NCBI GenBank assembly: GCA_963833985.1
Contig: CAWIAD010000002.1
Coordinates: forward strand, 1,248,001 to 1,312,000
DNA length: 64,000 nt
Origin: an uncultured Planctomycetaceae bacterium
Lineage (GTDB): Bacteria; Planctomycetota; Planctomycetia; Isosphaerales; Isosphaeraceae
Direction: 5' to 3'
Shown here: positions 1 through 23,799 of the stretch, in pieces
How the letters are laid out: every line of letters starts with the position of its first letter
Position numbering within the stretch: position 1 is the stretch's first letter
Notes under the pieces: generated by a model
What the model saw: only the letters and a program-made list of their open reading frames with translations
What the model was told of the DNA's origin: nothing
The model's database searches: none
Translations under genes and position numbers: made by a program

Positions 1-2
1 AC

Positions 3-755
3 CTTCTGGGCGCGTCTGAGCTGGAGAAGTTGAGAGTCGCGGTGGCCGCTGTGGAACAGGCGGCAAGTGCGCTCGATGCGACCAATGATCGTTTCCAGCT
101 CGAGGCCGAGCCCTGCGATGGCCGGAAAGTCGCCAACGCAGTCGCCGACCCGATCCTCGATCACCCCGGGTTCTTCGAGGTTCTCAGTCTGCCCCATGTC
201 CTCGACGTCGTCGCGGGGCTTCTCGGTACGCCGAACGTCAAGCTCCACCACACCAAGCTCTTCATGAAATACCCCGGCTCTCCGTGGTCGATTCACTGGC
301 ACCAGGATTTCTCGTATCTTCTCCACTGCAATTTTGACCTGCTGGCGGTGATGTTCATGCTCGATGGATCGGACGACGAGAACGGGGGCCTGAAGGTCGT
401 GCCGGGCTCGCATCGCGAAGGACCGATCGAAGTGACAAATCCCGAGGCAGGCTGGATGATCGACCTGGCGCCCTGGGCCGCCGGACGTCTCGTGGAGTCG
501 CTCACGGTCCCGCCTGGGGGAGCTTCCATACACCACTGCTGCCTGGTCCATTCCTCCGCCCCCAATCGATCCACGCGTCCGCGCCGGGCGTTCATCGTCG
601 AATATTCCGCCGCAGACAATTATCCGATCGCGGGCAGGACTGACTACGCTGGCTATGGGACGATGCTCCGCGGTTTGGACCCTCGGAGAGCTCGCTGCAT
701 CGCGGGAGACTGGCGCATCCCGCCGGCACGCAGCCGAAGTCGACACCGCCAGTGA
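3..755 (+). CDS. PhyH-family Fe(II)/2-oxoglutarate dioxygenase, 5'-truncated by the window edge
   Basis: HWHQD (H-x-D), GLKVVPGSH, distal HSS and RRAF motifs; the frame is open back to position 3. Confidence 0.88.
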   Translation, partial: LLGASELEKLRVAVAAVEQAASALDATNDRFQLEAEPCDGRKVANAVADPILDHPGFFEVLSLPHVLDVVAGLLGTPNVKLHHTKLFMKYPGSPWSIHWHQDFSYLLHCNFDLLAVMFMLDGSDDENGGLKVVPGSHREGPIEVTNPEAGWMIDLAPWAAGRLVESLTVPPGGASIHHCCLVHSSAPNRSTRPRRAFIVEYSAADNYPIAGRTDYAGYGTMLRGLDPRRARCIAGDWRIPPARSRSRHRQ

Positions 756-1137
756 GCACCCGTTTCCGAGCATGAAGCCCGGCCCGGCCCTCAGGTCTCT
801 GGTCATCGGGCCGCCGCTCCCAGAGACTGGCCAAGCAGGGCGTGCCCGTATTCGCAGGCGACGGGCGCGTGCACTGACCGGTCAAAGTGTGGCGCTGCGC
901 CGTTGTCGCGACCGGCTGAGTGCGATGCTCCCATTGCCGAACGGAAAAGTTCGGGAGCCGCGGCCGGCGTTCCATGATTCATTCGGAACGAGTAGTGATC
1001 CAGAGCCTTGACACGGGCGTTCCGGCGCGTTCAAAATCATTTCGCTCAAGTCGGCATCGGAGATTCTCCGGTGCACGGACAACTCTATGTGCACCTCAAC
1101 GGGCCAGCAAATCCTTTCTCAAGGCCGGAGTGACACG

Positions 1138-1464
1138 ATGAGCGAACAAGATCGGATCAAGGACGCGCTCAGCAAGATGACCGAGGATCAGGTCGAGGCC
1201 ATCAGACGTGTATTGACATCCACGTACGAGGAAGGTCCCACGAAGCTCACGCCGGAGCAGATCAAGAGCCTGGCGGCTGAGTCTGCCGAATTCCACAGGG
1301 CACAGAAACAGGTGGCCGAAGCGGTCGGCGTGCTGTGGAACGCTCGTCTCGATCTGGCCATCAAACTCGGAGATCCGGAAGACGTACAGCGTGCCATGAT
1401 GCGACCGGTCGACTTTTACGACAACTGCGACTGCGGTGGCACCGTAGGCACCCAGTGCTGGTGA
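1138..1464 (+). CDS. Putative RiPP precursor peptide, 108 aa, long helical leader and Cys-rich core ending in Cys-Trp
   Basis: GGAG 7 nt before ATG 1138; charged Cys-free N-terminal ~90 aa; all three Cys in the tail FYDNCDCGGTVGTQCW; directly upstream of a radical SAM/SPASM gene. Confidence 0.78.
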   Translation: MSEQDRIKDALSKMTEDQVEAIRRVLTSTYEEGPTKLTPEQIKSLAAESAEFHRAQKQVAEAVGVLWNARLDLAIKLGDPEDVQRAMMRPVDFYDNCDCGGTVGTQCW

Positions 1465-1651: not shown

Positions 1652-3037
1652 ATGAACGTAACGACCTGGATGCCATCGCGCTTCAACCTCGCAACTCGGG
1701 ACGCGGACGGTTCCCTGCTGCTCTACAACAGCTACATGGGCGCCTTCGCCCGGATCCCGGAGGCCGAAGTGCCACGGGTCCGATCGGCCCTCGACGGCGG
1801 ATTGTCCGAGGACCCCACTGGCATCCTGGCGGAGCTGTGCATCAACGGCTTCCTCGTACCCGACGGCGTCGACGAATTCAAGAGGGCCGAGGCGCTGCGG
1901 ACCGAGGAGTACACGACCAGCCGCGAATTACAGCTCGTGCTGCTTCCGAACGAGCAGTGTAATTTCCGCTGCAAGTACTGCTCGCAGACGTTTACACGAA
2001 AGAAGATGAAGCGGGAAGTCATTGAAGGTATCGTTGCGCACGTTCGATCGAGAGCTGCGGATCTGTCAGTACTCACGGTCGGGTGGTTCGGCGGCGAACC
2101 ACTCACCGCCATCGAGATCATCGAGGAGGTCGCAGGTCGCTTGCAGACGATCTGTGCAGAGTACGGGATCTATTACTCCAGCAGTATGACCACGAATGGT
2201 TACCTGCTGACGCCGCGGGTCGCGAAGATCCTCTTCCGCGCGGAGGTCCGAGGATTCCAGATCACGCTCGATGGTCCCCAGGAACAGCACGATCGGTTGC
2301 GGGTGCTCGGCGATGGCAAGACCGGCACCTTCAAGACGATCCTCAGCAACCTCAACGCCCTGCGCGACCAGCCGGAAGCGTTCAAGGCGGTCATCCGCGT
2401 CAATTTCGACGCGGAGTCGGTGGATTGCATGGACCCTTTCCTTGATCTGGTGCGCTCCGAGTTCGCTGCGGATTCGAGATTCTGCCTCGATTTCCACCCC
2501 GTGGGAAAGTGGGGCGGGCCCCATGACGAATACCTCTCGGTCTGCGGGATCGACGATGGCCGAACCTACTCGGTGGATCTGGCCAGGAAGGCGGCCGAGG
2601 GAGGGTTTGAACCTTACGCCCTGCGTGAGAAGCTCAAACCGCTTGGCAGCAAGTGCTACGCGGCCAGACCGCATTCGTTTGTCATCGGATCCGACGGGAC
2701 CGTCTACAAGTGTACGGTTGCGCTGGAAGATCCGAGGAATCATGTTGGCCGCATCACCGGCGAGGGCGCGCTGCTCATCGATGCCGACAAGCACGCTCAA
2801 TGGATCGGCACGGGAGACAATGAGGACGCCGGTTGCCATTCGTGTTTCTTCCGGCCGTCGTGTCAGGGGAACGCCTGCCCTTTACATCGAATGAACACGA
2901 GTGAGCGTCCCTGCCCGACGATCAAGACGAATATCGAACAGGTCCTGTACACGATCTCGGCAAGCCATGCCATTAAGTCGGCGGGCCGACGGGCCGAACC
3001 GGTGAAGGAGCCCGCCCATCTCACAGTCGATTCCTGA
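1652..3037 (+). CDS. Radical SAM/SPASM peptide maturase with RRE-like N-terminus
   Basis: CNFRCKYC, WFGGEP, TTNG, ITLDG; SPASM cysteines CYAA...YKCT...CHSC..PSCQGNAC..C; GAGG upstream of ATG 1652. Confidence 0.92.
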   Translation: MNVTTWMPSRFNLATRDADGSLLLYNSYMGAFARIPEAEVPRVRSALDGGLSEDPTGILAELCINGFLVPDGVDEFKRAEALRTEEYTTSRELQLVLLPNEQCNFRCKYCSQTFTRKKMKREVIEGIVAHVRSRAADLSVLTVGWFGGEPLTAIEIIEEVAGRLQTICAEYGIYYSSSMTTNGYLLTPRVAKILFRAEVRGFQITLDGPQEQHDRLRVLGDGKTGTFKTILSNLNALRDQPEAFKAVIRVNFDAESVDCMDPFLDLVRSEFAADSRFCLDFHPVGKWGGPHDEYLSVCGIDDGRTYSVDLARKAAEGGFEPYALREKLKPLGSKCYAARPHSFVIGSDGTVYKCTVALEDPRNHVGRITGEGALLIDADKHAQWIGTGDNEDAGCHSCFFRPSCQGNACPLHRMNTSERPCPTIKTNIEQVLYTISASHAIKSAGRRAEPVKEPAHLTVDS

Positions 3038-3041
3038 TTCC

Positions 3042-4088
3042 GTGACTCGCATGGAAATCGCGGACGATGCGACGGCGTCCGGCGCGTCCGGGACCCTGTC
3101 GTCATTCTTCGCGGCGTGGATCGAGCCTTTGTTCCCCCGGGACGAGCAAACGCGGATGCTCGAGGGCTTCGCATTCCTCGTCGACCGAGCCTTTGCCGCT
3201 CCGCTCGGTCCGGGAAGTCGCAGGTCCAATCTCTGTGCGGACGGGACCCCGCTGGAGATGTCGCTGGCGCTTGACAACAGCGGTCGCTGGGCGATCCGGT
3301 TTGTATGCGACGTGGCGGCAGGGTCGACCGCCGACGAGTCGATCGGGTTCCATCGCGCACTTGCGGACAGGGTGATCCCGGACTCCGGTTCACGCGCGGA
3401 GGAACTCGACTGGCTCTTCGGCAAACACCTCTCGGGTGCGCTCGAAAGCTCGCGGTTCCGGGTCTGGTACGGGATGGGCTTTGCTCCTCAGCACATGGAT
3501 GTCGGTAAACTTTATTTCAATACCGAATGGTTGTCGGCGGTCCAGGTGCACGAGATCGCGGCTCGGTTTCTGTCGCCGGAGATGCTCGACGGCCTGGCGT
3601 CGATTCCTTTGCTGAAGAGGGAATCCTACGTCGGCGTCGGTTACGATTTTGACCGCGCAGGGCTACGAAAACTGAAAACCTATGTCAGATTGGCCGGGCT
3701 CGACGTCGCTGCACTCGAGAGCAGCGTGGACTGCCATTGTCGCGGCCGGCAGGGCCGCTTTCGGCAACTCCTGGAGAGGGTAGCCGAGGCCTGCGGTCGG
3801 CCCTACGAGGACAGCTTCGTCGCTTCCGCCGGCTACGTTCCTCGCTGGGGGAAGCGAGAGTTCAAGGTCTACCTCTCGCTGGCGGCCTGGGGCATACGCG
3901 ACTTCGCGGCGACGGCTCCGTTGTTGCAGGCGATTCTCGCCGGCTGGGGATTTCAGGCGGGCACTCTTGACACCTCACCCGGCCCCGCAGGGTGCGTGCC
4001 GACGCTCCTGGCGATCGGCGTGGATGATGATCGAGAGCTGGCGTCAATCTATTTCAAACCCGAGCTGGATCCCGGAGTGTGCCCGTGA
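3042..4088 (+). CDS. DMATS-type (tryptophan dimethylallyltransferase-like) aromatic prenyltransferase
   Basis: SNLCADGTPLEMS..IRFVCD motif and repeated K-x-Y strands (KLYF, KTYV, KVYL); start may be ATG 3051. Confidence 0.7.
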   Translation: MTRMEIADDATASGASGTLSSFFAAWIEPLFPRDEQTRMLEGFAFLVDRAFAAPLGPGSRRSNLCADGTPLEMSLALDNSGRWAIRFVCDVAAGSTADESIGFHRALADRVIPDSGSRAEELDWLFGKHLSGALESSRFRVWYGMGFAPQHMDVGKLYFNTEWLSAVQVHEIAARFLSPEMLDGLASIPLLKRESYVGVGYDFDRAGLRKLKTYVRLAGLDVAALESSVDCHCRGRQGRFRQLLERVAEACGRPYEDSFVASAGYVPRWGKREFKVYLSLAAWGIRDFAATAPLLQAILAGWGFQAGTLDTSPGPAGCVPTLLAIGVDDDRELASIYFKPELDPGVCP

Positions 4089-4360
4089 TCGTTTCGGCTC
4101 CTCGATCACTCGTCCGAGGCCTTGGCGGCGTTCCATGGCAACTTGAACCTGGAGACCGATGACGCAAGGCATCCTGTACCGGCATAAGATCGCGCGGCGA
4201 TCTGCCGAAGCCAAGGCACCGGGCCATCTGGAGATGCTCGTGGGACGGTGGAGGGAGCCAGGCGCCGGGCGGAGACTCCGCTCGCGGCTTGCCGGGGGTG
4301 GATGAATGCGAGCCCGAACCGTAGTCGATAGGAAGAGCCTTCTCGCTGGGAGTCCGCGAC

Positions 4361-5908
4361 ATGAACGCCGTTCAGGATTCTTCGATCCGCTCCTTCTCTT
4401 ATTCGGGAACGGTCTACGATTTCGACACTGCCACGCTGCGTTTCCTGGCGCGCGATCGGTCGGGGCATCCTGCGGAGACGGCCTGTGGATGCCGGGAACC
4501 GGAGAGCCCCGCCGAGCCAGCGATGCGTCCGGCCGGCATCAACTTCATCACTCTGAACGTGGCCCACGACTGCAATATGACCTGCCCCTACTGCTTTGCC
4601 AAGGAAGGGCTCTACGGCGGACCGCGGCAGCTCATGACGGCGGAGACGGCCAGGCGCTGCGTGGACTGGCTGATCAAGGTCTCGGGGGCGCACTCGGATT
4701 GCTTCCTGCGCTTCCTGGGCGGCGAGCCGCTCCTGAACTTGCCTGTGATGCGCGCAGCCATGGAGTACGCCCTTGAGCAGGGGGCCGCACGGGGCAAGCA
4801 CATCCACTTCAGCGTGAATACCAACGGCACGATCTTCAGTGAGGAGGTTGATGAGCTTTTGCGGAAGTACCGCGTGACTATCTCGATCAGCATGGACGGC
4901 ACGCGGGAGGCCCATGACACGTATCGAGTTTTCCGATCCGGGCGGGGGAGCTACGACACGGTCGTGCAGAACGTCCCGAAGTTCCTTGCGATCGATCCCT
5001 ATGCGATGGTGAACGCCACCCTCACGGCCGACAACGTCGACCTCTTCGAGTACGCCGTGCATTTCCGCAGCCTGGGGTTTCAGATCATCCGGTTCGCGAT
5101 CGTCGGCACCGCGGTGCCTGGAGTTGCCGTGCGTCGCGAGGAATTGCTGGATCGCATCCGGACCAACTATGACCGGCTTGCCGAGTACTATGCTGATGAC
5201 CTGAGACACGGACACATCTGGTACCTGTCAGACTTTTACAAGTATTTCGAGAACCTGCGCTTCCTTCACCCACGAATGAATCGGTGCGGGGCCGGGACGT
5301 CGTACGTGAACATCGACGTGAATGGAAAAGTGCACCTTTGCCACCGCTTCACCGCCGACAAAACTCAGGAAATCGGCGACGTCTCGAATGGCCTGGATCA
5401 GCTCGCGGTTCCCCACGAGATCCGGAGGATGAACCAGCTGCTGCCCATGAACGGCTCGGTCCCCTCTGGCGTGCAGCCGTCCCCGGTTCCGTCGCGAGGT
5501 AATTCCGTCAGCGTCGCGCTGCCGGTCATCGGCCAGGTCTCAGGGGCCTCCTCCTGCGGGAGTCATGTAAGCAGACCGCATGCGGAGGATCCGCTCACCG
5601 CCGTGCATCGCCGGCTTGATGGAGAAGTGATGCTCGAGCAGCGCGGCTCTCTGGCCGGCGGCAATAATCCGTGCTCGATTTGCGACATTCGCTTCTTGTG
5701 CGGGGGCATGTGTTTCCACGATGGGGAAATCCTTCACGGGGACCTGTTCGGCGGTCCGGACGTTTTCAAATGCGAAGTGGATCGACACCTGGCCAAGATT
5801 GCCATCTGGCTCGTCGACCAGATCCACGCGCTGGACGATGGCGTCTTCGCCGAGCTGGACAGGTTGCACCAATGCTCGGCCCAGCGCACCAAGGGCAAGG
5901 AGCACTGA
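4361..5908 (+). CDS. Radical SAM/SPASM enzyme resembling SCIFF/ranthipeptide thioether-forming maturases
   Basis: LNVAHDCNMTCPYCFA..G.YGG.R.LM, FLGGEP, CGAG..Y...CHRF, CSIC..RFLCGGMC..C. Confidence 0.9.
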   Translation: MNAVQDSSIRSFSYSGTVYDFDTATLRFLARDRSGHPAETACGCREPESPAEPAMRPAGINFITLNVAHDCNMTCPYCFAKEGLYGGPRQLMTAETARRCVDWLIKVSGAHSDCFLRFLGGEPLLNLPVMRAAMEYALEQGAARGKHIHFSVNTNGTIFSEEVDELLRKYRVTISISMDGTREAHDTYRVFRSGRGSYDTVVQNVPKFLAIDPYAMVNATLTADNVDLFEYAVHFRSLGFQIIRFAIVGTAVPGVAVRREELLDRIRTNYDRLAEYYADDLRHGHIWYLSDFYKYFENLRFLHPRMNRCGAGTSYVNIDVNGKVHLCHRFTADKTQEIGDVSNGLDQLAVPHEIRRMNQLLPMNGSVPSGVQPSPVPSRGNSVSVALPVIGQVSGASSCGSHVSRPHAEDPLTAVHRRLDGEVMLEQRGSLAGGNNPCSICDIRFLCGGMCFHDGEILHGDLFGGPDVFKCEVDRHLAKIAIWLVDQIHALDDGVFAELDRLHQCSAQRTKGKEH

Positions 5909-6015: not shown

Positions 6016-7449
6016 ATGGTCGACTGCGTCCTGGTCTACCCGAACCCGTCTCGCGATAGCCCCAATCGCAACCTGGCGCTGGGCATTCTCTTCGTCGGTG
6101 CGGCTCTCGAGGAGCAGGGCTTCTCCGTCGCCTACATCGACCTGCGCTTCGACACGAGGCAGGAACTCGCCGGCTTGCTGACTGGCGGTGTGCGCGTGCT
6201 CGGCGTCTCCGTCATGACCGGGAACCAGTGCAAGGAAGCCGCGGAGGTACTTCGCATGGCGAAGACCCTCGCGCCCACTGTCCGCACGGTCCTTGGCGGT
6301 GTGCACCCGTCGATGCTGCCACAGGAATGCCTGGATGAACCCGACGTCGACTTCGTCGTCACCGGCGAGGGCGAGCAGACCATGGTCGAGCTGGTCCAGG
6401 CCATCCTCGACGGCACTCACGATTTTGGCGGCATCACGGGGCTGGGGTGGAAAGATCACGGGGAGACGAAGCGGAACCCCGACCGTCCGTTCATGGACCT
6501 GGCAAGTGCGCCGTTCCCGATGACTCCGGCCAGCAGGCGCTTCTACGAGATTGCCGCCCGTACGGGTCACGTCAGTTACTTCACCACGCGCGGCTGCCCT
6601 TTCCGTTGCAGCTTCTGCTACAACCTGGCCTTCAACAAGCGGAAGTGGCGCTCGCTTCCGATGGAGCGACTCGAGGAGGATCTCCGGCGGGTCCGCCGCG
6701 AAGTTCCGTTCGACCACGTCTACTTCGTCGACGATTACGTCGGCCATCGCGTCGAGCGTCTCCGCGACCTGGCCAGCACCATGAACCGCATCCAGCTCAC
6801 CTGGCACTCCTCGATCCGCGTCAACGACATCAGCGCCGAGACGGTGAAGATCCTGGCCGACGGGAATTGCAGGCTGATGCTTCTGGGTGTCGAATCGGCC
6901 GCCGAGGACGTGCAGCAGGGAATCCTCGTGAAGGACTATCGCCAGGGCATCGACGACGTGCGCCGTTGCGTCACGAGCATCGCGCGGACGAATATCACGC
7001 CGCTCTACAGCTTCATGTACAATGTCCCCGGCGAGACGTCCGAGCAGCTCAAAGAGTCATGCGAGCTGGCCGAGTGGATCCATCGCACCGATCGACGGGC
7101 GCGGATCGGCTTCTACGCGTACACGCCCTACCCGGGAACGCCCCTCTATAATCAGGCCCTCCAGTCGGGCTTTCGGCCCCCCTCGCGGCTGGAAGGCTGG
7201 GGACAGATGAGCCTGAGCAACGACCTCAACCCGAAGCTGCGCGACCTCTACTACATCGCCGGACTTCGCTTCCGGGGCCGCAAGGGCGACCGCACGGATG
7301 AGAACTTCCCCGGGCTCCAGCGGCTGCGCATCCTGCCTTTCGAGGCCATTTCACGAATGCGCTGGCGAATGCGGAGTTTCGTCTACACGGACTACGAACG
7401 CCGGATGGTCACCAACATGATCGAGCACGCCACGCGCCGTGCGCGCTAG
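6016..7449 (+). CDS. Cobalamin-binding radical SAM protein (class B methyltransferase-like)
   Basis: GGVHPS, GEGE, TRGCPFRCSFC, GVES, PYPGTPLY; GGAGG upstream of ATG 6016. Confidence 0.92.
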   Translation: MVDCVLVYPNPSRDSPNRNLALGILFVGAALEEQGFSVAYIDLRFDTRQELAGLLTGGVRVLGVSVMTGNQCKEAAEVLRMAKTLAPTVRTVLGGVHPSMLPQECLDEPDVDFVVTGEGEQTMVELVQAILDGTHDFGGITGLGWKDHGETKRNPDRPFMDLASAPFPMTPASRRFYEIAARTGHVSYFTTRGCPFRCSFCYNLAFNKRKWRSLPMERLEEDLRRVRREVPFDHVYFVDDYVGHRVERLRDLASTMNRIQLTWHSSIRVNDISAETVKILADGNCRLMLLGVESAAEDVQQGILVKDYRQGIDDVRRCVTSIARTNITPLYSFMYNVPGETSEQLKESCELAEWIHRTDRRARIGFYAYTPYPGTPLYNQALQSGFRPPSRLEGWGQMSLSNDLNPKLRDLYYIAGLRFRGRKGDRTDENFPGLQRLRILPFEAISRMRWRMRSFVYTDYERRMVTNMIEHATRRAR

Positions 7450-7469: not shown

Positions 7470-10085
7470 ATGATGGAGGACACAACGGAAATCTGCATCT
7501 GGGGGGCCGGCCTGGTGGGCTATTCGCTCGCGTGCGCCCTGGCGGAACGCGGGCGGAAGTGCATACTGGTCGATATCTCCCGGGATGTCGTCGAGCGCAT
7601 CAACGCCGGTGCTCCCCCCCGTTCACTGCATGGTGTGTACGGCTCTCAGCCCCTGGATGCCGGTGTCCGCGGTCGCTTGCGGGCGACGATGGAGCCGTCG
7701 CTGGCACTGTCGCCCGAGCACCCTGTGCACATCATCGCGGTGCCCACGGAGCGTGGGGGCCTGGTTTGCTCGGACCACCTGCGTGAGGTGGTCGAGAATG
7801 TCGCCCGTGCGGAATCCGCGGCGCGTCCGCTCTACTTCCTGATCGAGTCCACCGTCTCCCCCACCTGGATCGATGGCATCGTCCACGCGACGTTCCGAGC
7901 CGCCGGTTGGAGGCACGGCGAGGATTACCACGTTGGCTGTTCACCGCGGCGCGATGTCTTCGGCGATCCTGCTTATGCGATGCAGCAGATCGACAAGGTT
8001 TACGGTGCCGACAGCGAGCAGGGTGCGGAACTGATGCAGGCACTCTACACTCCGCTCTGCCGGGGACTGCATCGGGCGCCCGATGCTCGCCATGCATCGC
8101 TCACGAAGCTCGTGGAGAATCTCTACCGGCACCAGGCGATCCTGCTGGCGAATCGGCTCGCGGCCGCGCTCCCCGGCTTCGACGTCGCGGAGGTGCTCCG
8201 CCTGGCCGCGACGAAATGGAATATGCAACTCTACCATCCCTCCCTCTGGGTCGGCGGCTACTGCGTTCCGCTCGCGAAGGATTACCTGGCGTCCTCGGTG
8301 GAACCGCAATGGAGGGACGATCTCCTCCCGGTCGAGGATATATCAAGGATGGAAAAGTTGTTCCTGGATGCCCTTTTTGCCGGAGCGTCGGGCCGGCGGG
8401 TTGGTCTGCTCGGGCTTTCGTACGCGCCGGGTCTACGTATCGTGGTGAACGCTCCGGCGCTGCGGGTCGTGCGTTACCTGAAGCGTCGGGGCCTCGAGGT
8501 GGCTGTCCACGACCCCTATTTCAGCGAGACCGAGATCCTCGAGCTCGCAGCAGTGCCCAGGTTCGATTTCCCGAGCGAGCTGCGAGACTACGATGACGTT
8601 GTGCTGCTGACCGCGCACGTGGAGTATAGCCGGATCTCCGATCGCGAGCTGGCCGCTCATCTGCCGGCGCGGGCCCGGCTCATCGACAACTGCGGCATCT
8701 GGAGACGGCGCCGCTGGGCGGAGGGGATCCGCTACGTCGAGATTGGCGGGGCGGGCTTTCGCGGCACCGACATGCCGGATGGGCAGGCAATTCAAGCCTC
8801 GGAGATCGAGGCCTCCGACTGCCCCGTCGCGTGCTCACCCGCCAGGAACCGGGCGTACCTGGAGCGGCTCGAGCGGGAAGGTGAGCTGCCAGGGTTTTAT
8901 ACACACGTGGATCGCATCCTCCAGATCGACCGAGACTACCTGCACGCGCAATTCGACGGTGAGCGAATGAATATCCCGCAGCTCGGGGAACGGGTGCGGG
9001 CCCTACGAGGCAAGCCGATCGCCGACCACTCCGACGCCCAGATCGATACCATCTGTGCTCTTGCAGTCTATGGGATGGCGTGGGTGCGGCTCGAATACGT
9101 CGATATGCGAGTGACGATGGAGCGCGCCTGTCGCTACCTCGTGGATACGGCCGAAACTTACAATCGGAACCTCCTGGAGATTGGAGAGGAGCCAGCCCGA
9201 TGGCCGCCGGGATCTCCCTGGTGGAAGATCGCGTCGCAAATCCCGGAGCTACGCGAGCGGATCGACGGGCATTATTTCCGGCTCTCTCTCATCAACGGCG
9301 CGAACTGGTACCGGAGGGAGGTCTTCCTGAGGAAGCAAGAGCTCGAGCCGCAGCCAATGCCCCGGACTCTTGCCGGCGCATTCGCAGCGCATTCGCCGGT
9401 TCCCAGGCTGATCGACGCGAGCGATCCGCACGAATCGCTCCGTGCCCTCACGAGGGCGGTGCTCGAGCGAGATCAATCCCCCACAACTTTGCTGGTGACA
9501 TTGATGAAGGCGGCGACCGAGGACCCTTGCATCGACGCCCACCACACGACACTGCTGTGCCCGCGGGGCACGATGCTGGAACGTCCCTGGGAGATGTCGC
9601 CAGAGGACTTCCTCGCGTACGTCGTGTTCCGCCCGGGGTTCGAGCCGCCGGTCGGCCAGGGCGTGCACGACTTCCGCACGATCCAGAAGGCGATGCTGGC
9701 TCATCACGCGGCGAAAAAAACCAAGCTGGCAAGGCGTTACAAGGCGCGCTACGGCCCTGGCTCGGTGGCGCAGCTTGCCGACAATCTTGGTGATCTGGGG
9801 ATCTACTACAATGAGGACGCGCACCATAAGGGCCACCAGGTTGCCGGCGTCGCGTCCGCCATGCGTTATCTCATGCCCGTGCGGGTGCGGCGCGAGGAAA
9901 AGGAATTCCGGATCGAGGGCCTGACCGACTTCCGGGTCACACGCATGAGCCGGGCGGAACGAGATCGCTTCCGCCTGGAGGACTTCCCGCTGTTCCATGA
10001 CTACGGCGGCTGGGCGCGTACCATCCTGGAGACTGCGTATTCGATGGGCTTCGTCTTTCCCCGAATGCTCGAGAACTGGCGATGA
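7470..10085 (+). CDS. Nucleotide-sugar dehydrogenase (UDP-glucose/GDP-mannose dehydrogenase family) fused to an unrecognised ~430-aa C-terminal domain
   Basis: N-half GAGLVG, AVPT, IESTV, KLVEN, VGGYCVP, LGLSY, HDPY; C-half unrecognised, contains NEDAHHKGH. Confidence 0.8.
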   Translation: MMEDTTEICIWGAGLVGYSLACALAERGRKCILVDISRDVVERINAGAPPRSLHGVYGSQPLDAGVRGRLRATMEPSLALSPEHPVHIIAVPTERGGLVCSDHLREVVENVARAESAARPLYFLIESTVSPTWIDGIVHATFRAAGWRHGEDYHVGCSPRRDVFGDPAYAMQQIDKVYGADSEQGAELMQALYTPLCRGLHRAPDARHASLTKLVENLYRHQAILLANRLAAALPGFDVAEVLRLAATKWNMQLYHPSLWVGGYCVPLAKDYLASSVEPQWRDDLLPVEDISRMEKLFLDALFAGASGRRVGLLGLSYAPGLRIVVNAPALRVVRYLKRRGLEVAVHDPYFSETEILELAAVPRFDFPSELRDYDDVVLLTAHVEYSRISDRELAAHLPARARLIDNCGIWRRRRWAEGIRYVEIGGAGFRGTDMPDGQAIQASEIEASDCPVACSPARNRAYLERLEREGELPGFYTHVDRILQIDRDYLHAQFDGERMNIPQLGERVRALRGKPIADHSDAQIDTICALAVYGMAWVRLEYVDMRVTMERACRYLVDTAETYNRNLLEIGEEPARWPPGSPWWKIASQIPELRERIDGHYFRLSLINGANWYRREVFLRKQELEPQPMPRTLAGAFAAHSPVPRLIDASDPHESLRALTRAVLERDQSPTTLLVTLMKAATEDPCIDAHHTTLLCPRGTMLERPWEMSPEDFLAYVVFRPGFEPPVGQGVHDFRTIQKAMLAHHAAKKTKLARRYKARYGPGSVAQLADNLGDLGIYYNEDAHHKGHQVAGVASAMRYLMPVRVRREEKEFRIEGLTDFRVTRMSRAERDRFRLEDFPLFHDYGGWARTILETAYSMGFVFPRMLENWR

Positions 10086-10714
10086 ACCGGACGATGCTTG
10101 CGCTCATGGCCCACCCGGACGATGCCGAGCTGTGCATGGGGGGGACAATCGCCCGCTACGCGCACGCCGGGTTCCGGGCCGAGATCGTGATCTCGTCGCT
10201 GCCGGACTTCCCGGACGTCCGTCGTGCCGAGGCTGCTCAGGGGGCTGCGGTCCTCGGCGCAGGTGTCCGCATCCTCGCTCCGCCCTCGAAACGCGAGACC
10301 TGGCAGGTCGAGGACTTTCCGGTGTACCGGCTGGTGGCGGCCTTCGACGCGATCCTGGAGGAGCTCCAGCCGTCCCTCGTATTCACGCACTGGCCCAAAG
10401 ACACGCACTTCGATCATGTTCGAGTGAGCCAGGCAGCCTTCTCGGCCACACGGAGGCACAGGGTCGACCTGTACCTGTGCGAGCAACCCAACCTCTACGC
10501 GGCCACCGTGGAGCCGATGAAGTTGAATACGTATGTGGACGTATCCCAGTTCATGGATAAGAGACTGGACAGCATCGCCTGCCACCGGTCGCAGACACAG
10601 GGGAAGACCTATTCGGAGCACGTCCGTGCCCGCACCCGGTTCCACGGGGAACGGACCGGCTGCCAGTATGCGGAGGCCTTCTGCTGCGCAATCCAGCGGC
10701 TGAGGATTGATTGA
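10082..10714 (+). CDS. PIG-L/LmbE family deacetylase
   Basis: AHPDDAE..MGGTI, RRAEA, THW..D.HFDH, CHRSQ, YAEAF; start overlaps the upstream stop. Confidence 0.92.
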   Translation: MNRTMLALMAHPDDAELCMGGTIARYAHAGFRAEIVISSLPDFPDVRRAEAAQGAAVLGAGVRILAPPSKRETWQVEDFPVYRLVAAFDAILEELQPSLVFTHWPKDTHFDHVRVSQAAFSATRRHRVDLYLCEQPNLYAATVEPMKLNTYVDVSQFMDKRLDSIACHRSQTQGKTYSEHVRARTRFHGERTGCQYAEAFCCAIQRLRID

Positions 10715-11574
10715 GCATGGGGCATTCCAGTCCTGTTGGGTTCTCGACAACGGTCATCGGGCGTTCGACCGACCTCAGCCGTCTGCTGGAGCTCGAACCC
10801 GACATCATCGAGCTGTGCGGCTATTCCGCCGCGCAGTGGCCCTCAGTGCGGGCGCAAATCGAGCGGTTGGGCATTCCCGTAGGGCTCCACTGTCCTTTGC
10901 CGTTCGAAGGATTCGTCCCCCACTTCGATATCACGGGACCAGACTCTGCGCGACAGGAAGAGGCTTTTGCGCTGGTCCGCCAGACACTTCGAGCTGCTTG
11001 CGAAGTGCAGGCCCGGTACGTCATTGTCCATTTCCCGAGCGTGCTCCGTGAGATTCTCGACGAGGATGACGCTCTCGAATCTCGTCGTGCTGCGGCGCTG
11101 TGCAGCGCACGGCGGATCGCGGAGCTCAGCCAGCAATACGGGGTGGCGATCCTGCTGGAGAACGTCGGCCCCAATCCTTATCTCTATCTCGGCGAGCACT
11201 TCACCTGGTTGTTCGGCCAGGTTCCCGAGCTGAGGATGTGCCTCGATTTCGGCCACTCCCATGTCCTGCCGGGAGCCGAGGACGTGTATCGATTTGCCGA
11301 GCAGGTCGCACCATTCGTCTCCGGGCTCCACGTCTACAATGCGACCCGGGCGGGCTATCGGGTCGGTTTCCACGAGGCACCGCTGGCTGAGCACGATCCC
11401 GACGAAGGCTGGATGGACCTGTCCAGGCTGCTCGCCGTGATGGCGAAGAGAGCCACGATTCCTTATTTCATTTTTGAGTACTCCGAAGATAGTGGACAGG
11501 ATGTGGAAGCCGTCCGGCGCGGCGTGCAACACTGGACCGCGACCTGGAGGAGTCTATGCCGCGAGGAGGGTTAA
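10711..11574 (+). CDS. Sugar-phosphate isomerase/epimerase (AP endonuclease 2 TIM-barrel) family protein
   Basis: LHCP, IVHFP, LLENV, CLDFGH, LHV, FH, IFEY metal-ligand pattern. Confidence 0.8.
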   Translation: MSMGHSSPVGFSTTVIGRSTDLSRLLELEPDIIELCGYSAAQWPSVRAQIERLGIPVGLHCPLPFEGFVPHFDITGPDSARQEEAFALVRQTLRAACEVQARYVIVHFPSVLREILDEDDALESRRAAALCSARRIAELSQQYGVAILLENVGPNPYLYLGEHFTWLFGQVPELRMCLDFGHSHVLPGAEDVYRFAEQVAPFVSGLHVYNATRAGYRVGFHEAPLAEHDPDEGWMDLSRLLAVMAKRATIPYFIFEYSEDSGQDVEAVRRGVQHWTATWRSLCREEG

Positions 11575-12707
11575 GAGGCTGGCTCCGTGGGCAACGGCTC
11601 CGTGCGCGGGGGGCGTCGCTCGGGGCGGGAACTTACGTCAGCCAGGGAGTGCGGATCAGCGCCCCGGACATCCGGATCGGGGCCGGCGGTTTCCTCGCCC
11701 CGGGCGTCGAGATCCAGGCGGATCGTGTCGTGATCGGCGACCGCTGTCACGTTGCGGAGGGGGTTTCACTTCGCGCAGAGCGCATCGAGATCGGCGAGAA
11801 TTGCATCCTGTTTCCGGGCGTTCGCATTCAGACGCTCGGCGAATTCCGCATGGGCCCGTACGGGAAGATCAGCCGTGGCGCGACGATCAAGGGGGGAAGC
11901 GTCCGGATCGGGTCCGAATTCTGGATGAACGCCGGCGCCGAGATTGGCGGCGGGGGATGGCGCAGTCGGACAGGTTGTTTCGAGGCGGGGGACCGCTGTC
12001 ACGTGGGCCGGTTGACTCACATCAATGTGACCGAGCCGGTCGTCTTCGGCGACGATACGGCGGTGGGCATGCACTGTATCCTGGCAACACATGCGCACTG
12101 GCAACCCGCAACGCAGGGCTATCCGCGGCTGCGCGGGGCCATCCGGCTGGGGTCAGACGTGGCGATCTATTCGGGAGTGATCATATCTCCGGGCGTCACC
12201 GTGGGTCACGGCGCGGTAATCGCGGCGGGCGCGGTCGTTCAGACGGACGTACCGGATCTGTCCCTGGCGGCGGGAGTGCCGGCACGAATCGTCCGTGAGC
12301 ACTTTCCCCGCGGTGGGGGAGCGCCTGTCGCCCTGGCACTGCTCTGCGAGTACATGGAAACGCGCTTCCCGGGTGTATCGTACCACTCGAAGGCCGGGCG
12401 TTTCATCGCCCAGCCCGCCACCGGAGCCCAGTGCATTCTGTATGACGACGATGAGAGTGCGATGGACCACGAGTCACGGCCCGGGTCGCTGATCGTCGTC
12501 ACGCTGAACCGGGCTGTTGCGGACGCGGCACAATCCGGAGCCGAGACCGTCTTCAACCTCGGTGATCGCGAGTTGACGGGCCGCTCCACGGAATTGAGCG
12601 AGTCGCTGCGTCAGTTCTTTTTCAGCGCGGGCCTGCGCTTCAAGTACCGAGGATACCAGCGCGGACCGCTGGACTACGCGCAACTGATCGAGTCCGGAAT
12701 CGAGTGA
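11556..12707 (+). CDS. Hexapeptide-repeat (left-handed beta-helix) acyltransferase with C-terminal extension
   Basis: Many IG-x-x repeats; PGVTVGHGAVIAAGAVVQTDVP..SLAAGVPARIVR. Confidence 0.88.
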   Translation: MPRGGLRGWLRGQRLRARGASLGAGTYVSQGVRISAPDIRIGAGGFLAPGVEIQADRVVIGDRCHVAEGVSLRAERIEIGENCILFPGVRIQTLGEFRMGPYGKISRGATIKGGSVRIGSEFWMNAGAEIGGGGWRSRTGCFEAGDRCHVGRLTHINVTEPVVFGDDTAVGMHCILATHAHWQPATQGYPRLRGAIRLGSDVAIYSGVIISPGVTVGHGAVIAAGAVVQTDVPDLSLAAGVPARIVREHFPRGGGAPVALALLCEYMETRFPGVSYHSKAGRFIAQPATGAQCILYDDDESAMDHESRPGSLIVVTLNRAVADAAQSGAETVFNLGDRELTGRSTELSESLRQFFFSAGLRFKYRGYQRGPLDYAQLIESGIE

Positions 12708-12779: not shown

Positions 12780-15224
12780 TCACCAATCCCGGACCAGTCC
12801 TCCCACCTCACGCTCGAGGCGCCCCACGAGCTCCCGAACGGACTGGTTCACCTCCTCCATGGAGAGGGTTCGGTCGCTGGCCTGGTACAGCAGCCGATAG
12901 GTCATGCTCCGCTTGCCCGGAGGGATTGGCGCACCCCGATATTCCGTCACGAAATCGACCGACGCGATCCAGTCAGAGTGAGCCGCGCTGAGCAGGCGAT
13001 CCAGCGCCTCGTGCGTGACGGCCTCGTCAACCGTGATGGAGATGTCGATCGGGACGCCCGGGTGTCGATGGATGGGACGGAAGACCTCGGGCGTCGGGGT
13101 CAGTTGCTGGAGCACGTCGAGATTGAACTCCGCCAGCGCCAGGTGCGGGCCGCAGCCGAGCGCGTCGGCGATTCTGGGGTGGAGCGTCCCGCACACGCCG
13201 ACGGGCGCGCCTGCCGCATCAACGAACTCGGCCGAGCGTCCGGGATGGAACCACGGGGCAAGCTGTCGCTCGGGATGACGAGGCCGGATCTCCAGGTTAA
13301 GCCTGCGAAACAGTGCCTGGGTGTGCCCTTTCAGGATGGACATCGCCTCCCGGTGCCAGCCCGAGTCGCTTGCGGGTTCAAGTCCTCCGCCTCCGGACGG
13401 ATCGCCGCCTTTCGCATGCTTCCAGTAGACCAGTCCCAGGTGGAAGGGCTGATCCGGCAGACCCTTGGCGGGATGAAAGGTTCGGCCCACCTCGTAAAGC
13501 GAAAGCTCTCGCGTGTAAGGAAGACTGCGCTGAAGCAAGCGGAGCAGGCCAGGTACGAGGTAAGCCCTGAGATGGGTGTTCTCCGCGCTGATCGGGTTGC
13601 GGAGCGACACTCGCGCCCAGGTGCAAGGACCCAGTATCTTCAGAAACGGCTCGAAATCGAAGGAATAGGTCCGCGCCTCGGTGTATCGCAGGGCCAGAGA
13701 GAGCAGTGTGCGAACGCGCTTCTGGAAGACCAGGACAGGGTCGCGGTAGGCGTTGGGCAACTGGATCTGGGGTTGTACGGGTGGGATGTTGCCGTAGCCG
13801 TGGATTCGGCCGACCTCCTCCACGATGTCTTCCGGGATGGCGATGTCCTTCGTGGCCCGGAAGCTTGGTACCCGGATGCGCAACGTGTCGCCCTCGAGTT
13901 CGCGAATTTCGAACTCCAGACGACGCAGGTCGGAGACGATCGCCTCCGCGGGAATCGCAGTGCCCAGCCGCTCATTGATGAAGGAGACGGATACGTCGAT
14001 CTCGACTGATGGCGTTGGGCCCGACTGGAAGTCGGTAAGGGAAGAGGCGACGCGCGCGCCGGGCAACAAATCGATCAGCAACTGCGCACACCGTTGCGCT
14101 GCGAGCGGAGGAAGAGTCGGGTCCACTGCCCTTTCGAACCGGGCGCTGGCCTCGGTGCGCAGGCCGAGGCGAGACGCCGTCTTGCGTATCGAGGCCGGAT
14201 CGAACGTGGCCGCCTCGATGAGAATGCTGCTGGTATCAGCGCGCACTTCGCTGTTTTTCAGGCCGCTCACCCCAGCGAGCGCGACCGGCCCTTCGGCATC
14301 GCAGATCAGCAGATCGTCGCTGCCGATCTGGTACTCCTGGCCGTCGAGGCCGACCACCGTCTCGCCGGCGGGCTGTCCCGTTTGCACGACGATGCGGCGA
14401 CCGTGAATCTCGCGTGAATCGAAGGCGTGCAGCGGGTTGCCCAGATCGAGCATCACAAAATTCGTGACATCGACAAGCAGGTTGATCGGCCTGAGCCCGC
14501 AGCGTGACAGCAGCGTCTGCATCCACAGGGGCGAGGGCACCGGCCTGACCCCCTCGACACGCAACGCGACGTAGCGAGCACAGCGCTCGGGTGCCCGCAC
14601 GTCGACGGCCACGGCAGGCGTTGTGCCGAGAGACAGTTCCACGGGAGGGATACGGAAGGGTCGCCTCAACAAGGCTGCCACCTCGTGCGCCAGGCCGGCG
14701 TGGCCCCACAGGTCGGGCCGGTGGGTGATTGACTTGTTGTCGAGCTCGAAGATGGTGTCCACCAGCGGGAGAACCCGGTCCAGAGGCGTCCCCGGCGCCA
14801 GCTCATCGGGCAGCACGCAGATGCCTGTCTGGTTGTCCGTCAAGGTGAGCTCGGCCGGCGAGCAGAGCATTCCATCGCTCGATGTGCCACGAATGCTCGC
14901 GCTCTTGACCGTGGCGCCGCCCAGACGCGTCCCGGGTGGAGCGAGCGCACTCTTCATGCCCTGCCGCACGTTCGGTGCGCCGCAGACGACCTGGCGCGGG
15001 GATCCTGATCCGTCGGACACAATGCAGATCGAAAGGTGGTCGGAGTCGGGGTGGGGCTGCACGCTGATCACTTCGGCGACGACGACGCCCTCAAGGCCGG
15101 CCCCGAATACGTGAAACCCTTCCAGTTCGGCCACGGAGCTTGTGAATCGGCGTGCCAGGTCCTCCCGATCAACACCGTTCAAATCGACATAACGTCTCAA
15201 CCAGTGAAATGAAAACTTCATCAT
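12780..15224 (-). CDS. pheT: Phenylalanine--tRNA ligase beta subunit
   Basis: VVCGAPN, SDGMLCS, HRPDLWGH, INLLVDVTNFVML, RTEASARFER, VPSFR..DI..PEDIVEEVGRIHGY, NPIS, C-terminal anticodon-binding domain; 814 aa, intact. Confidence 0.97.
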   Translation of the reverse strand: MMKFSFHWLRRYVDLNGVDREDLARRFTSSVAELEGFHVFGAGLEGVVVAEVISVQPHPDSDHLSICIVSDGSGSPRQVVCGAPNVRQGMKSALAPPGTRLGGATVKSASIRGTSSDGMLCSPAELTLTDNQTGICVLPDELAPGTPLDRVLPLVDTIFELDNKSITHRPDLWGHAGLAHEVAALLRRPFRIPPVELSLGTTPAVAVDVRAPERCARYVALRVEGVRPVPSPLWMQTLLSRCGLRPINLLVDVTNFVMLDLGNPLHAFDSREIHGRRIVVQTGQPAGETVVGLDGQEYQIGSDDLLICDAEGPVALAGVSGLKNSEVRADTSSILIEAATFDPASIRKTASRLGLRTEASARFERAVDPTLPPLAAQRCAQLLIDLLPGARVASSLTDFQSGPTPSVEIDVSVSFINERLGTAIPAEAIVSDLRRLEFEIRELEGDTLRIRVPSFRATKDIAIPEDIVEEVGRIHGYGNIPPVQPQIQLPNAYRDPVLVFQKRVRTLLSLALRYTEARTYSFDFEPFLKILGPCTWARVSLRNPISAENTHLRAYLVPGLLRLLQRSLPYTRELSLYEVGRTFHPAKGLPDQPFHLGLVYWKHAKGGDPSGGGGLEPASDSGWHREAMSILKGHTQALFRRLNLEIRPRHPERQLAPWFHPGRSAEFVDAAGAPVGVCGTLHPRIADALGCGPHLALAEFNLDVLQQLTPTPEVFRPIHRHPGVPIDISITVDEAVTHEALDRLLSAAHSDWIASVDFVTEYRGAPIPPGKRSMTYRLLYQASDRTLSMEEVNQSVRELVGRLEREVGGLVRDW

Positions 15225-15332
15225 GTCCTCGGATTAGTGGACCTGCTGGCAGGCACATGCTGCGCCATCCGGAATGCGTGGGGCTTCCTCCCGGAGCCGC
15301 ATCGACGACCCGGGGGCGCGCTGGCTCCCCGC

Positions 15333-16387
15333 TCACTCCAGGCCCAGGCCCAAGAATTGCTTGAGGAAGCGGATGTCCCCGTCGAGAAACAAGCGGATAT
15401 CCGGGATCTTGTAGCGCATCATTGCGAGACGGGACAGCCCGAGCCCGAACGCCCAACCCTGCCATTGCTCGGGGTCGAGGCCGCCGGCACGGATGACGTT
15501 GGGGTGGACCAGTCCGCACGGGAGCAATTCCACCCAGCCCGACATCTTGCAGACCGAGCATCCCGCCTGGCCGCACACCAGGCAGCCAATATCCAGCTCG
15601 AAGCCGGGCTCGACGAAGGGGAAGAAGCCTGGGCGAAGCCGGATGGCCACCCTGGCGGCGAACACTTCCGAGAGCAGGCTGGTCATCGAAGCAATCAGGT
15701 TCGCCACCGTGGCCCGTCGATCGATGAAGAGGCCTTCCACCTGGAAGAAGGTGTGCTCGTGCGAGGCGTCAACGGCCTCGTGCCGGAACACCCGCCCCGG
15801 GAAGATGGCTCGGAACGGCGGAGTAAAAGTGCGCATGGCCCGGACCTGGCCGGCGCTCGTATGGGTCCGGAGCAGGTTGCCATCCTCCAGCCAGAACGTA
15901 TCTTGCATGTCTCGGGCGGGGTGATCGGGGGGAATGTTCAAAGCATCGAAATTGTAATATTCCGATTCGGCCTCCGGATAATCGAGTACGTAGAACCCCA
16001 TCGACTGGAAGATCTCCTGGAGGCGCCACTCCATGAGGCTGATCGGATGGAATGTTCCAGTATTGACCGGGGTGCCAGGGAGCGTGGCGTCGAAGTCGTC
16101 CGCGACGAGCTCGGCCTGGAGCCGAGCTTCCGCAAGCTCGGCCTTGCGCCGGCCGGCCAGGCCTTCGACTTCCCGAACCGCGTTGTTCAAGGCGCTGCCA
16201 AAGACCTGCGCTGCTCGGGGGAGAGGGTTACGATCTTCTGGAACAGGGCACGCAGCAGTCCTTTCTTGCCGGTGTACCGGCGCTCGGCGGCCTCGAGCGC
16301 CGTCAGGTCCGCCGCGCGCGTGATGGCATCTCGGGCCTCTTCCTCGAGACTCTTCAACACTTCGTCCGCAGGCTGATTTTCGCTCAT
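15333..16387 (-). CDS. pheS: Phenylalanine--tRNA ligase alpha subunit, one frameshift near 16206
   Basis: N-terminal YTGKKG coiled coil in one frame; NFDALNIPPDHPARDMQDTF, LRTHTS, GRVFR, FPFVEP, GWAFGLGLSRLAM in another; adding one base near 16206 joins them. Confidence 0.95.
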
Positions 16388-16616
16388 ATCTGGATGGCTC
16401 ACGGGAGCTCTCGGCGAAGCACTCGCGCAGGGCGCAAATGGACCGCTCGAGCATGGCCGGTTCCGCACAGGGCTCGAACGCTTTCCCGATGGTCTGACGT
16501 AACTCGTGACTGGATCGGCGAATTCGCACGCGTCGAACCGGTCGGAACGCAATCAGTCTAACCGATGCCCGGGAGGAGAAGTCAACGGCAGACTAACCCG
16601 AAGGCCGGTCCGGAGA

Positions 16617-18366: not shown

Positions 18367-18463
18367 TCCGTCAAAGGGGGACCTGCGTCATGAACTGGAA
18401 GCGGCTCGCCGCGCGCGTTCGACGGGGGGGTCTCTCGGACGCTTGAGACACGGAAGCTCATGT

Positions 18464-20406: not shown

Positions 20407-20772
20407 GATGATTCCCCGTGCTCGCGGACCGGCAATCAACTGCGCCCTCGTGGTACGCCTCACTGGGGGTTACGCCAGAGAGTCTCTGCCAGGACTGAAA
20501 CGGCGGCCGACCGTGCCGTCCCGGGTCCCTGGCAAGCTCCACTGGGACCCGCTGCCCGTGCGGCCGGTCTTGAAGCAAGCGCTGCTCAGGCACCCTTCAG
20601 GATCAGGATCCTGCCACCTGGGACCGCTCGGCGAGAAGCAGAGCGGGATGACGGGGCAAGTCCTCATCATAGCGAGGTCGAATGGGCCGGTCAAAGCCGA
20701 GTTCTCGTAGCCCCTTCATGCTGCTCGATAGCCCAATCCGCTGGCGAAGGCCAGTGGAAACCGCATTCAGCA

Positions 20773-20781
20773 TGATATAAT
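20773..20781 (+). promoter_or_regulatory. Candidate extended -10 promoter element
   Basis: TGATATAAT (TGnTATAAT) in an AT-rich patch of the divergent intergenic region. Confidence 0.35.
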
Positions 20782-21155
20782 ATGGAAGTGCGACAATATA
20801 AGCAAACACAAAACTCAGTGCTGTCGCGAGTGATCACTGTCAGCTCCTGGATTGGCATCGGGCGGCTTCAATGGGGCCCGGATTCGCCTCTGTGTCATCC
20901 TCCCCGTGGTCATGGCGGCAGGGGAGGCCCGGCGAGTTGGCGCCCGAGCCCCATCCTGTAACGGAAACGGCTTGCTCAAGGACTGATCCGGTGCATAATG
21001 AAGAGCCGGAAGTCCAATCGTCGATCCGGCGCGTTCGGTCGGTATTTGCCCCTGGCTCAGGTCCTGTCACGCGCTGGACCCAGGCTGCGGTGGCAGGGGC
21101 GATACGGGCGATCCTTTCCACGAGCTTTTTGCCAACCCACGAGGATGCGGGACCT

Positions 21156-21533: not shown

Positions 21534-21658
21534 ATGGTCGATGGCGAGCTGAGTATGTTCCACTTTGGCTTCGGCCGCGCCGCCGGTGACAACCTCGTCT
21601 TCAGGTCGCGAGAATCAAGGATAGCCGCAGGGCCCCTGGAGCCGGACACGGAGATCCG

Positions 21659-23703: not shown

Positions 23704-23799
23704 GAGAACTTCCCGATCGGATGCTGCCGCTTGCGGCCTGACTCATGAGCGAGTTGCCGTGCAAGGGTTGGATATCAGATGTGTGAATTCACAAGAGCG

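Follow-up and report, generated by a model that had tools for sequence, protein, structure and literature searches.

We describe a real, rare and unnamed family of precursor peptides with a conserved three-gene module; by the tests run, it is a member of no named family. The peptide studied here is encoded in a 64,000-nucleotide stretch of DNA from an uncultured Planctomycetaceae bacterium (the window), followed by a radical SAM enzyme (rSAM-1) and a prenyltransferase-like protein with a DMATS fold. Judged by their sequences, the family members are likely RiPP-type, precursor-like peptides, and the system is most likely ranthipeptide-like with Trp prenylation.

The precursor family and its core motif

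The module and the elements of the precursor gene are as follows.

1008..1037 (+): sigma-70-like promoter, a consensus match only (one found against 0.1 expected in shuffles)
1138..1464 (+): gene of the 108-aa precursor peptide, a member of the unnamed family (open frame, homologs, profile searches)
1174..1203 (+): leader repeat 1, residues 13-22, missing from short family members (self-repeat comparison)
1243..1272 (+): leader repeat 2, residues 36-45 (alignment, self-repeat comparison)
1300..1371 (+): most conserved leader segment, residues 55-78, with the LWNAxLD helix; putative enzyme-recognition site (A55, L66 and W67 in at least 90% of 70 rows)
1420..1434 (+): conserved core motif D95-N96-C97-x-C99; putative cross-link site (family counts)
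1435..1461 (+): variable tail GGTVGTQCW; its last residue, Trp108, is the sole Trp of the core (alignment, family counts)
1652..3037 (+): rSAM-1, with predicted RRE, radical SAM and seven-Cys SPASM domains; putative cognate maturase, TIGR04463-like below cut-off (family scores, model, alignment)
3042..4088 (+): DMATS-fold (indole-type) prenyltransferase with Glu72 and the basic and Tyr residues kept (model fold match, profile, alignment)

A GGAG ribosome site precedes the ATG of the precursor gene, and seven homologs of 105–111 aa, with 45–71% identity, share the same start Met. Since these homologs agree in both length and Met, 1138-1464 is a gene with a correct start. Its translation ends in FYDNCDCGGTVGTQCW, a tail that holds all three Cys. 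The 108-aa frame, its two leader motifs and its Cys/Trp tail are thus present as the original prediction described them. The precursor sequence had no plasmid match, no meaningful match among PDB sequences and no usable match in the ESM Atlas. Among sequencing runs, none of RNA was listed; two soil DNA runs contained a small share, and a few pieces of 151–248 bases aligned at 99% or above. Precursor models in Pfam and NCBIfam matched none of 70 aligned members, and the family is unnamed in both.

A profile search found 43 proteins and a full HMMER scan 56; in total, 96 homologous sequences were counted. This set includes six further precursors read from loci, with five rows left out before the core counts, namely two long unrelated proteins (P0078 and P0079) and three sequences cut or frame-shifted ahead of the core (P0051, P0055 and P0080). 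Weak family matches in G035 and G070 were rejected, as they covered only 24–25 profile positions inside frames of 406–499 aa. Many of the 96 are near-duplicates, and clustering of a 97-sequence set at 55% left 44.

The CxC is present in 95 of 96 members; the exception, P0047, retains the leader and an F-F-D triplet. Asn or Asp immediately precedes the first Cys in 93/95 (41/44 after clustering), the position before that is Asp (81) or Asn (7) in 88/95, and the position three before the first Cys is aromatic in 70/95. Downstream of CxC no position is fixed. A further Cys occurs in 37/95 members, a terminal Trp in 45/95 (14/44 after clustering) and a Thr at Cys+5 in 4/95. Tail lengths range from 0 to about 30, with four or fewer residues after CxC in 12 of 89 members; Gly stands at Cys+7 in just 37/89, Gly-rich tails being typical of the main subgroup. 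The counts for CxC and the preceding Asp/Asn pair therefore define the family core as D-[N/D]-C-x-C, not as a CDC...CW tail. Of the Cys/Trp tail that homologues had been expected to conserve, the CxC stood, whereas the third Cys and the terminal Trp turned out not to be family features. As a side observation, four loci (L004, L009, L011 and L012) carry tandem precursor pairs, in which one peptide has a short tail without Trp and the other a longer tail ending in Trp.

The Asp/Asn pair and the LWNAxLD leader helix are the most conserved parts of the peptide, and both had been overlooked previously. In the 70-row alignment, the conserved part of the leader is the helix around L66-W67. The two leader motifs resemble each other modestly, with a score reached by 9 of 300 shuffles, and under a strict pattern 31 of 92 members have two copies, 23 a single one and 37 none, with three copies in P0080. 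This varying copy number indicates that the repeat is real in long leaders yet dispensable.

It had also been suggested that the leader is of the Nif11/NHLP type, and this did not hold. None of the 70 members matched a Nif11 or nitrile-hydratase-like leader model (Pfam, NCBIfam, E 0.01), although the same library detected a positive control, L030:1960-2484, which matched TIGR03793 (NHLP leader) above cut-off. In precursors with Nif11/NHLP leaders, a double-glycine site separates the helical motif from the core. The 108-aa peptide has none between Trp67 and Cys97, and G-G or G-A occurs anywhere in this stretch in 18/87 members. The leader repeats sit 50–80 residues before the core.

The family was found in 13 other loci: eight metagenome contigs, an uncultured alphaproteobacterium, Bradyrhizobium lablabi, a second locus in the same genome as the window, G029 and G999. 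One contig (L003) stops just past the precursor, and two (L006 and L007) carry an identical precursor. In all 12 other loci with downstream DNA, an rSAM-1 homolog of 46–68% identity directly follows the precursor, which bears out the predicted link to the enzyme at 1652-3037. In 8 of the 10 loci that reach far enough, a transferase comes next after the rSAM (L004, L005, L006, where only the start is seen, L010, L011 and L028, and in fused form L001 and L018). The remaining two are L012 (G522), with no transferase in its whole genome, and L008, where an unrelated gene and no transferase is found in the 0.4 kb visible. By eye, the gene that starts after the rSAM in L008 (2179-2437), in the transferase's place, resembles a papain-type protease.

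The second locus of the same genome (G000:C1:~963520-967930; L001 9519-13930) encodes a precursor ending FYDNHGCDC...QCW, an rSAM-1 paralog of 48% identity and a prenyltransferase-cyclase fusion that is interrupted near L001 13450 by a change of frame. The fusion is intact in G029 (L018 10699-12759), where the transferase domain is joined to an MstE-like terpene cyclase. Across 11 loci, leader similarity tracks rSAM-1 similarity (rho 0.88, 0/5000 permutations); this shows pairing, not chemistry, because kin share both.

The putative maturase and prenyltransferase

The best NCBIfam family for rSAM-1 is TIGR04463, at 220.9 bits against a curated cut-off of 525, and all 10 aligned rSAM-1 enzymes match it. 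The next-best families are the Clo7bot, CefB and geopeptide maturases, which act on Cys-rich peptides. Scores are far lower against SCIFF (TIGR03974, 58 bits; cut-off 425) and against the cyclophane families YhhB (51), AmcB (48) and GrrM/OscB (44 bits; cut-offs 310–445). A match of the search to the FlmE/OhkG family was rejected, since it leads to an unrelated DD(I/V)LF precursor family, for whose rSAM no function is stated.

The rSAM-1 model has an RRE-like N-terminus (strands, then three helices), and its top fold match is CteB (TM 0.61). CrpC, a TIGR04463 member, makes ranthionine thioethers with a seven-Cys SPASM domain (PMC13692751). In 10/10 rSAM-1 rows, seven SPASM Cys lie in near-CrpC register (C335, 354, 395, 398, 404, 409 and 421, against C333, 352, 390, 393, 399, 403 and 422 in CrpC). 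An eighth Cys, C298, is also invariant; it could occupy the open AuxI site, and by eye CrpC has a similarly placed Cys. The residues after the AuxI Cys are Thr-Val in rSAM-1, as opposed to His-Gln in CteB (PMC10288494).

The transferase model (pLDDT 85.5) adopts an ABBA barrel and matches the folds of 5-DMATS, PriB, IptA and CymD with TM 0.65–0.70 (E 1e-11 to 1e-9). In a profile search, too, DMATS enzymes came up, with E values from 4e-8 to 1e-3. Direct scores stay below cut-offs (Pfam Trp_DMAT 20.2 vs 25; TIGR03429 18.3 vs 163.85), and identity to bacterial DMATS enzymes is 14–18%. In the alignment, Glu72 falls on the Glu of the 'PVEFS' stretch of DMATS enzymes, and all 11 of 11 rows as well as the G999 enzyme retain it; R86, Y158, K212 and Y214 are likewise conserved in 11/11. 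We take the Glu to be that of the indole site, and the basic and Tyr residues to lie at the diphosphate. The fold and profile matches agree with the earlier suggestion of a Trp-type prenyltransferase gene near the precursor.

As to the acceptor, all nine transferase loci (the window included) have a core Trp in at least one precursor; it is terminal in seven and lies inside the D-N motif in two (G029 and G999), being the sole Trp of the G999 precursor. Terminal Trp shows no link with the transferase (7/9 with, 2/2 without). Both transferase-free loci (G522/L012 and L008) still end in Trp, so that a terminal Trp does not by itself mark the prenyl site, and both are without Tyr or Trp before the motif. 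We nevertheless lean, by a modest degree, towards Trp108 as the preferred acceptor. MppC attaches a prenyl group to a Trp in a peptide cyclised by thioethers, depends on the leader for this, and accepted Trp, not Tyr or His (PMC12715784), and the nearest folds are those of Trp enzymes.

The second choice is Tyr94, the aromatic residue just before the putative ring motif, which we consider possible but distinctly less probable; prenylation there would be compatible with thioether rings. A Tyr or Trp in or directly before the D-N motif is found in 9/9 transferase loci versus 0/2 without (Fisher p 0.018), a comparison that was chosen post hoc, among related loci, with just two transferase-free examples, one of them visible for 0.4 kb. 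A DMATS structure with bound Tyr is also among the fold matches.

Proposed chemistry and its alternatives

We propose, at roughly even chances, that rSAM-1 forms two small thioether rings between the pair Cys97/Cys99 and the pair Asp95/Asn96, and that the DMATS-fold enzyme prenylates a core aromatic, probably Trp108. The family, its motif, the order precursor–rSAM-1–prenyltransferase, the leader/enzyme co-variation and the enzyme families and folds are the observations from which we infer this chemistry. The N-terminal RRE of rSAM-1 would bind the helical leader, and the substrate Cys would be held on the three-Cys AuxI cluster. The beta-carbon of Asn/Asp would then lose a hydrogen to the enzyme, and S-C(beta) bonds would form, with a change of -2 Da each. 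The simplest pairing would be Cys99-Asn96 (an N-x-x-C ring) together with Cys97-Asp95, giving two overlapping rings in five residues; other pairings, e.g. Cys97 to Tyr94, are conceivable. Thereafter the prenyltransferase would alkylate Trp108, or alternatively Tyr94, and the leader would be removed near an Arg-Pro motif by a protease, possibly a C25-like protein encoded upstream. At this locus only, further enzymes (rSAM-2, a B12 enzyme and sugar enzymes) may decorate the product, e.g. with a third thioether from Cys107.

The position of the acceptors follows from the short tails. Thus, with four or fewer residues after CxC in 12 of the 89 members, family-wide acceptors must lie upstream, where Asp95 and Asn96 are the conserved candidates. 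A precedent is NxxcB, which joins Cys to the beta-carbon of Asn and also accepts Asp (PMC9389541). A thioether on Cys, as originally envisaged, is the likeliest reaction. Several facts speak against the proposal. Sequence-distant radical SAM enzymes often change chemistry, and rSAM-1 scores far below all curated cut-offs (221 against 525). It differs from CteB in the Thr-Val after the AuxI Cys, and its C298 could occupy the open AuxI site. The aromatic-x-D/N triplets of the family, P0047 with no CxC, and the two transferase-free loci that end in Trp also count against it. In addition, each Cys of CrpA precedes its acceptor (PMC13692751), the reverse of the Asp/Asn-before-Cys direction proposed here.

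Alternatively, rSAM-1 might form a three-residue cyclophane (Phe93-Asp95 or Tyr94-Asn96), alone or plus one thioether, leaving CxC as a disulfide or metal site. An aromatic-x-D/N triplet lies somewhere before CxC in 91/96 members (here F93-Y-D95 and Y94-D-N96), and it is retained as F-F-D in P0047, where CxC is lost; the triceptide link runs from an aromatic i to Asn/Asp i+2 (PMC11002830). Nevertheless, with D/N fixed, any nearby aromatic yields such a triplet almost automatically, and its register is not fixed (Tyr94-type 66/96, Phe93-type 56/96; 19/44 each after redundancy reduction). The cyclophane families score 44–51 bits, compared with 221 for TIGR04463, and no other conserved enzyme would then explain the invariant CxC. 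We thus regard the cyclophane as rather improbable.

Lower still do we place two readings that would put the acceptors into the tail. StsA and BlaA connect C-x-C to Gly residues of the tail (PMC10288494), and the Gly-rich tails of the main subgroup invite the idea of a hairpin sactipeptide in which Cys97 and Cys99 are bonded to Gly alpha-carbons. The short tails of the 12 members, the overall spread of tail lengths and the frequency of Gly at Cys+7 make this very unlikely. A Cys97-Thr102 link of the CteB kind, which the original prediction favoured, fares slightly worse as something made by rSAM-2 at this locus only. It draws on the scores of rSAM-2 (205–225 bits to the Nif11-rSAM, PapB, SCIFF and QhpD families), on its Cys-His-Arg, which resembles the His-Gln of CteB (PMC10288494), and on there being no other precursor-like ORF seen beside rSAM-2. 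However, rSAM-2 has no close homolog in other loci (22–29% identity only), and the invariant Cys97 would be expected to be used by the invariant rSAM-1. As a family trait the link fails, since the Thr at Cys+5 is confined to the 4/95 and is absent even from the 71%-identical homolog.

Carrying the two thioether rings on the D-N-C-x-C motif one step further, a tentative and less probable proposal is a new lipo-ranthipeptide class. In it, one radical SAM enzyme would knot D-N-C-x-C into two interlocked thioether rings, and the DMATS-type enzyme would lipidate the product; at the paralogous loci, cyclisation of the prenyl chain by the fused MstE-like cyclase would yield a polycyclic terpenoid and with it a hybrid of peptide and meroterpenoid, and here the extra rSAM, B12 and sugar enzymes would decorate the product further. 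To our knowledge, a five-residue D-N-C-x-C double ring would be the tightest such knot.

Neighbourhood, distribution and relation to known systems

The gene order in the window is PhyH dioxygenase, precursor, rSAM-1, prenyltransferase-like gene, rSAM-2, B12 radical SAM gene, nucleotide-sugar dehydrogenase fusion, PIG-L deacetylase, TIM barrel and acetyltransferase. The genes around the module are listed below.

1..755 (+): PhyH-type dioxygenase, beginning before the window (family match)
4361..5908 (+): rSAM-2, a PapB/QhpD/SCIFF-like SPASM enzyme whose N-terminus is short and whose AuxI Cys is followed by Cys-His-Arg; an add-on of this locus (family scores, alignment)
6016..7449 (+): B12-binding radical SAM protein, probably a methyltransferase; an add-on of this locus (family matches)
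7470..10085 (+): nucleotide-sugar dehydrogenase with a fused domain of 440 aa that fits no known family; an add-on of this locus (family searches)
10082..12707 (+): PIG-L deacetylase, xylose-isomerase-like barrel and hexapeptide acetyltransferase, apparently in the same operon (family matches)
G000:C2:1245459-1247330 (L002 7459-9330) (-): C25-peptidase-like gene, 623 aa, 0.7 kb further upstream on the opposite strand (Atlas look-alikes)

rSAM-2 scores 216 bits against TIGR03974 (SCIFF; cut-off 425), and no separate precursor for it was seen among ORFs of at least 20 aa at 740-1660 and 4060-4400. The 440-aa C-terminal domain (window 8760-10085) had no Pfam, NCBIfam or plasmid match. No close counterpart of rSAM-2, the B12 enzyme or the sugar genes was found in the other loci, most metagenome contigs being too short to tell; these genes may belong with the peptide, to which position alone ties them.

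The 623-aa gene, whose protein belongs to an unnamed family, recurs in 3/5 genomes searched, where it lies near RiPP loci, two other loci of the precursor included, with H215 and C284 invariant in 3/3 and a C-terminal Cys pair. Its protein resembles Atlas C25 clusters weakly (0.80–0.81) and large Actinomycetota clusters at 0.95–0.98. As it has no Pfam, NCBIfam or PDB match, a role as leader protease is only a lead.

Further along, the pheT/pheS genes (window 12780-16529 (-)) are the sole copies found in their own genome, and PheT is 33–36% identical to those of four congeners. They are a foreign copy inside an island, the native copy being displaced or missing from the 96%-complete assembly. 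At window 17008-25911 lie further genes of the tailoring type, for a PLP decarboxylase, an Asp/Asn beta-hydroxylase-like protein, DUF3419, a cysteine-dioxygenase-like cupin, TauD and DUF3050, as well as a B12 radical SAM gene spread over two ORFs at 21659-23703. The Asp/Asn hydroxylase lies near a peptide with a D-N core, and a link between the two is only one possibility.

Some other loci have accessory genes of their own. Upstream of the module in the Bradyrhizobium locus (L012 1-9000) lie a transketolase-like pair, a glycosyltransferase-like gene, a kinase and oxidoreductases, with an S51 peptidase after the rSAM (11730-12431); like the window, this locus combines the module with sugar genes, though different ones. 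In G521 (L030 1960-3835), a second RiPP module sits behind the transferase, consisting of an NHLP-leader precursor, whose core has Q-T-W-x-D-T-W repeated twice, and an unclassified rSAM. Three plasmid loci with rSAM-1 relatives of 35–42% identity were set aside as other contexts, judged by annotation only: two on Deinococcus plasmids (L022 and L023; 38–42%) with LLM oxidoreductase and lantibiotic-dehydratase genes and small ORFs, and one on a Bacillus plasmid in an annotated methyltransferase context.

The system is rare. None of 13 congeners has it, and 121 genomes of its own family gave two real matches. Sampling gave 1/401 in the phylum (its own), 1/401 in the family of G522, 2/301 in the family of G521 and 1/3, 1/101 and 1/251 in genera; outside its own family the frequency is thus around 1 in 300, and only one locus (G999) was added in this way. 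Such rare and patchy occurrence suggests horizontal spread.

Among known systems, CrpC/CrpA of Methanococcus voltae is close in that CrpC belongs to the best-matching family of rSAM-1, shares the RRE, radical SAM and seven-Cys SPASM arrangement, and acts on a Cys-bearing substrate with a structured N-terminal part (PMC13692751). It differs in the residues after the AuxI Cys and in the score gap of rSAM-1 (221 vs 525); CrpA is a 29-kDa repeat protein with Cys ahead of acceptor, as opposed to the single D-N-C-x-C motif here, and the available part of PMC13692751 reports no prenyltransferase for crp, where our module has its DMATS-fold partner. Ranthipeptide systems likewise have a cognate radical SAM/SPASM enzyme with an RRE beside a Cys-bearing precursor, a feature seen here. 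With NxxcA/B, PapA/B, CteA/B and QhpC/D our system would share a Cys-to-Asn/Asp beta-thioether; it contains an N-x-x-C unit (N96-C97-D98-C99), and CteB is also the top fold match (PMC9389541, PMC11002830). In contrast, rSAM-1 scores at most 107 bits to these enzymes, the precursor family is another one, and they share no prenyltransferase partner of the kind present here. With the two Cys one residue apart, rings here would overlap or nest. SCIFF/thermocellin (CteA/CteB) further differs in its six-Cys precursor with a conserved Thr acceptor, compared with two conserved Cys here. The triceptides (Xye, Grr, Fxs, Yxd, Yhh and Amc) share aromatic-x-Asn/Asp triplets and Gly-rich tails; they differ in the low rSAM-1 scores, and our family has an invariant CxC and no fixed triplet register.

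On the prenyltransferase side, 5-DMATS, IptA, PriB and CymD act on free Trp or small indoles. The enzyme described here shares their fold, the Glu at the catalytic position and the barrel's basic and Tyr residues, and differs in its low identity and in its peptide substrate, which is putative. MppC and NctPC are Trp prenyltransferases of lanthipeptide-type RiPPs (PMC12715784; PMC13290415); as in our system, an ABBA-barrel enzyme accompanies a thioether-forming enzyme and a precursor whose leader is long and helical, and the MstE-like cyclase fusions of L001 and L018 have the prenyltransferase-cyclase architecture given for NctPC in the review PMC13290415. The rings are made there by a lanthionine synthetase and, as we propose, by a radical SAM enzyme here; the leader here is not Nif11-like.

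In the literature searched, which covered few subscription papers, we found no description of this precursor family, and no case in which a DMATS-type prenyltransferase or a prenyltransferase-cyclase fusion accompanies a radical-SAM thioether enzyme. Neither LWNARLD nor LWNAQLD occurs in the table of 3,421 precursors in PMC10288494, and its single DNCNC is unrelated. As all parts are of known kinds, we consider the module a new combination, not a new principle. It offers a small, testable three-gene system in a TIGR04463-like radical SAM clade for which one characterised member was found, with a short substrate whose conserved motif suggests overlapping thioether rings. If our proposal is true, peptide lipidation would reach the ranthipeptides, beyond lanthipeptides and cyanobactins, and the module would provide enzymes for making compact lipidated macrocycles.
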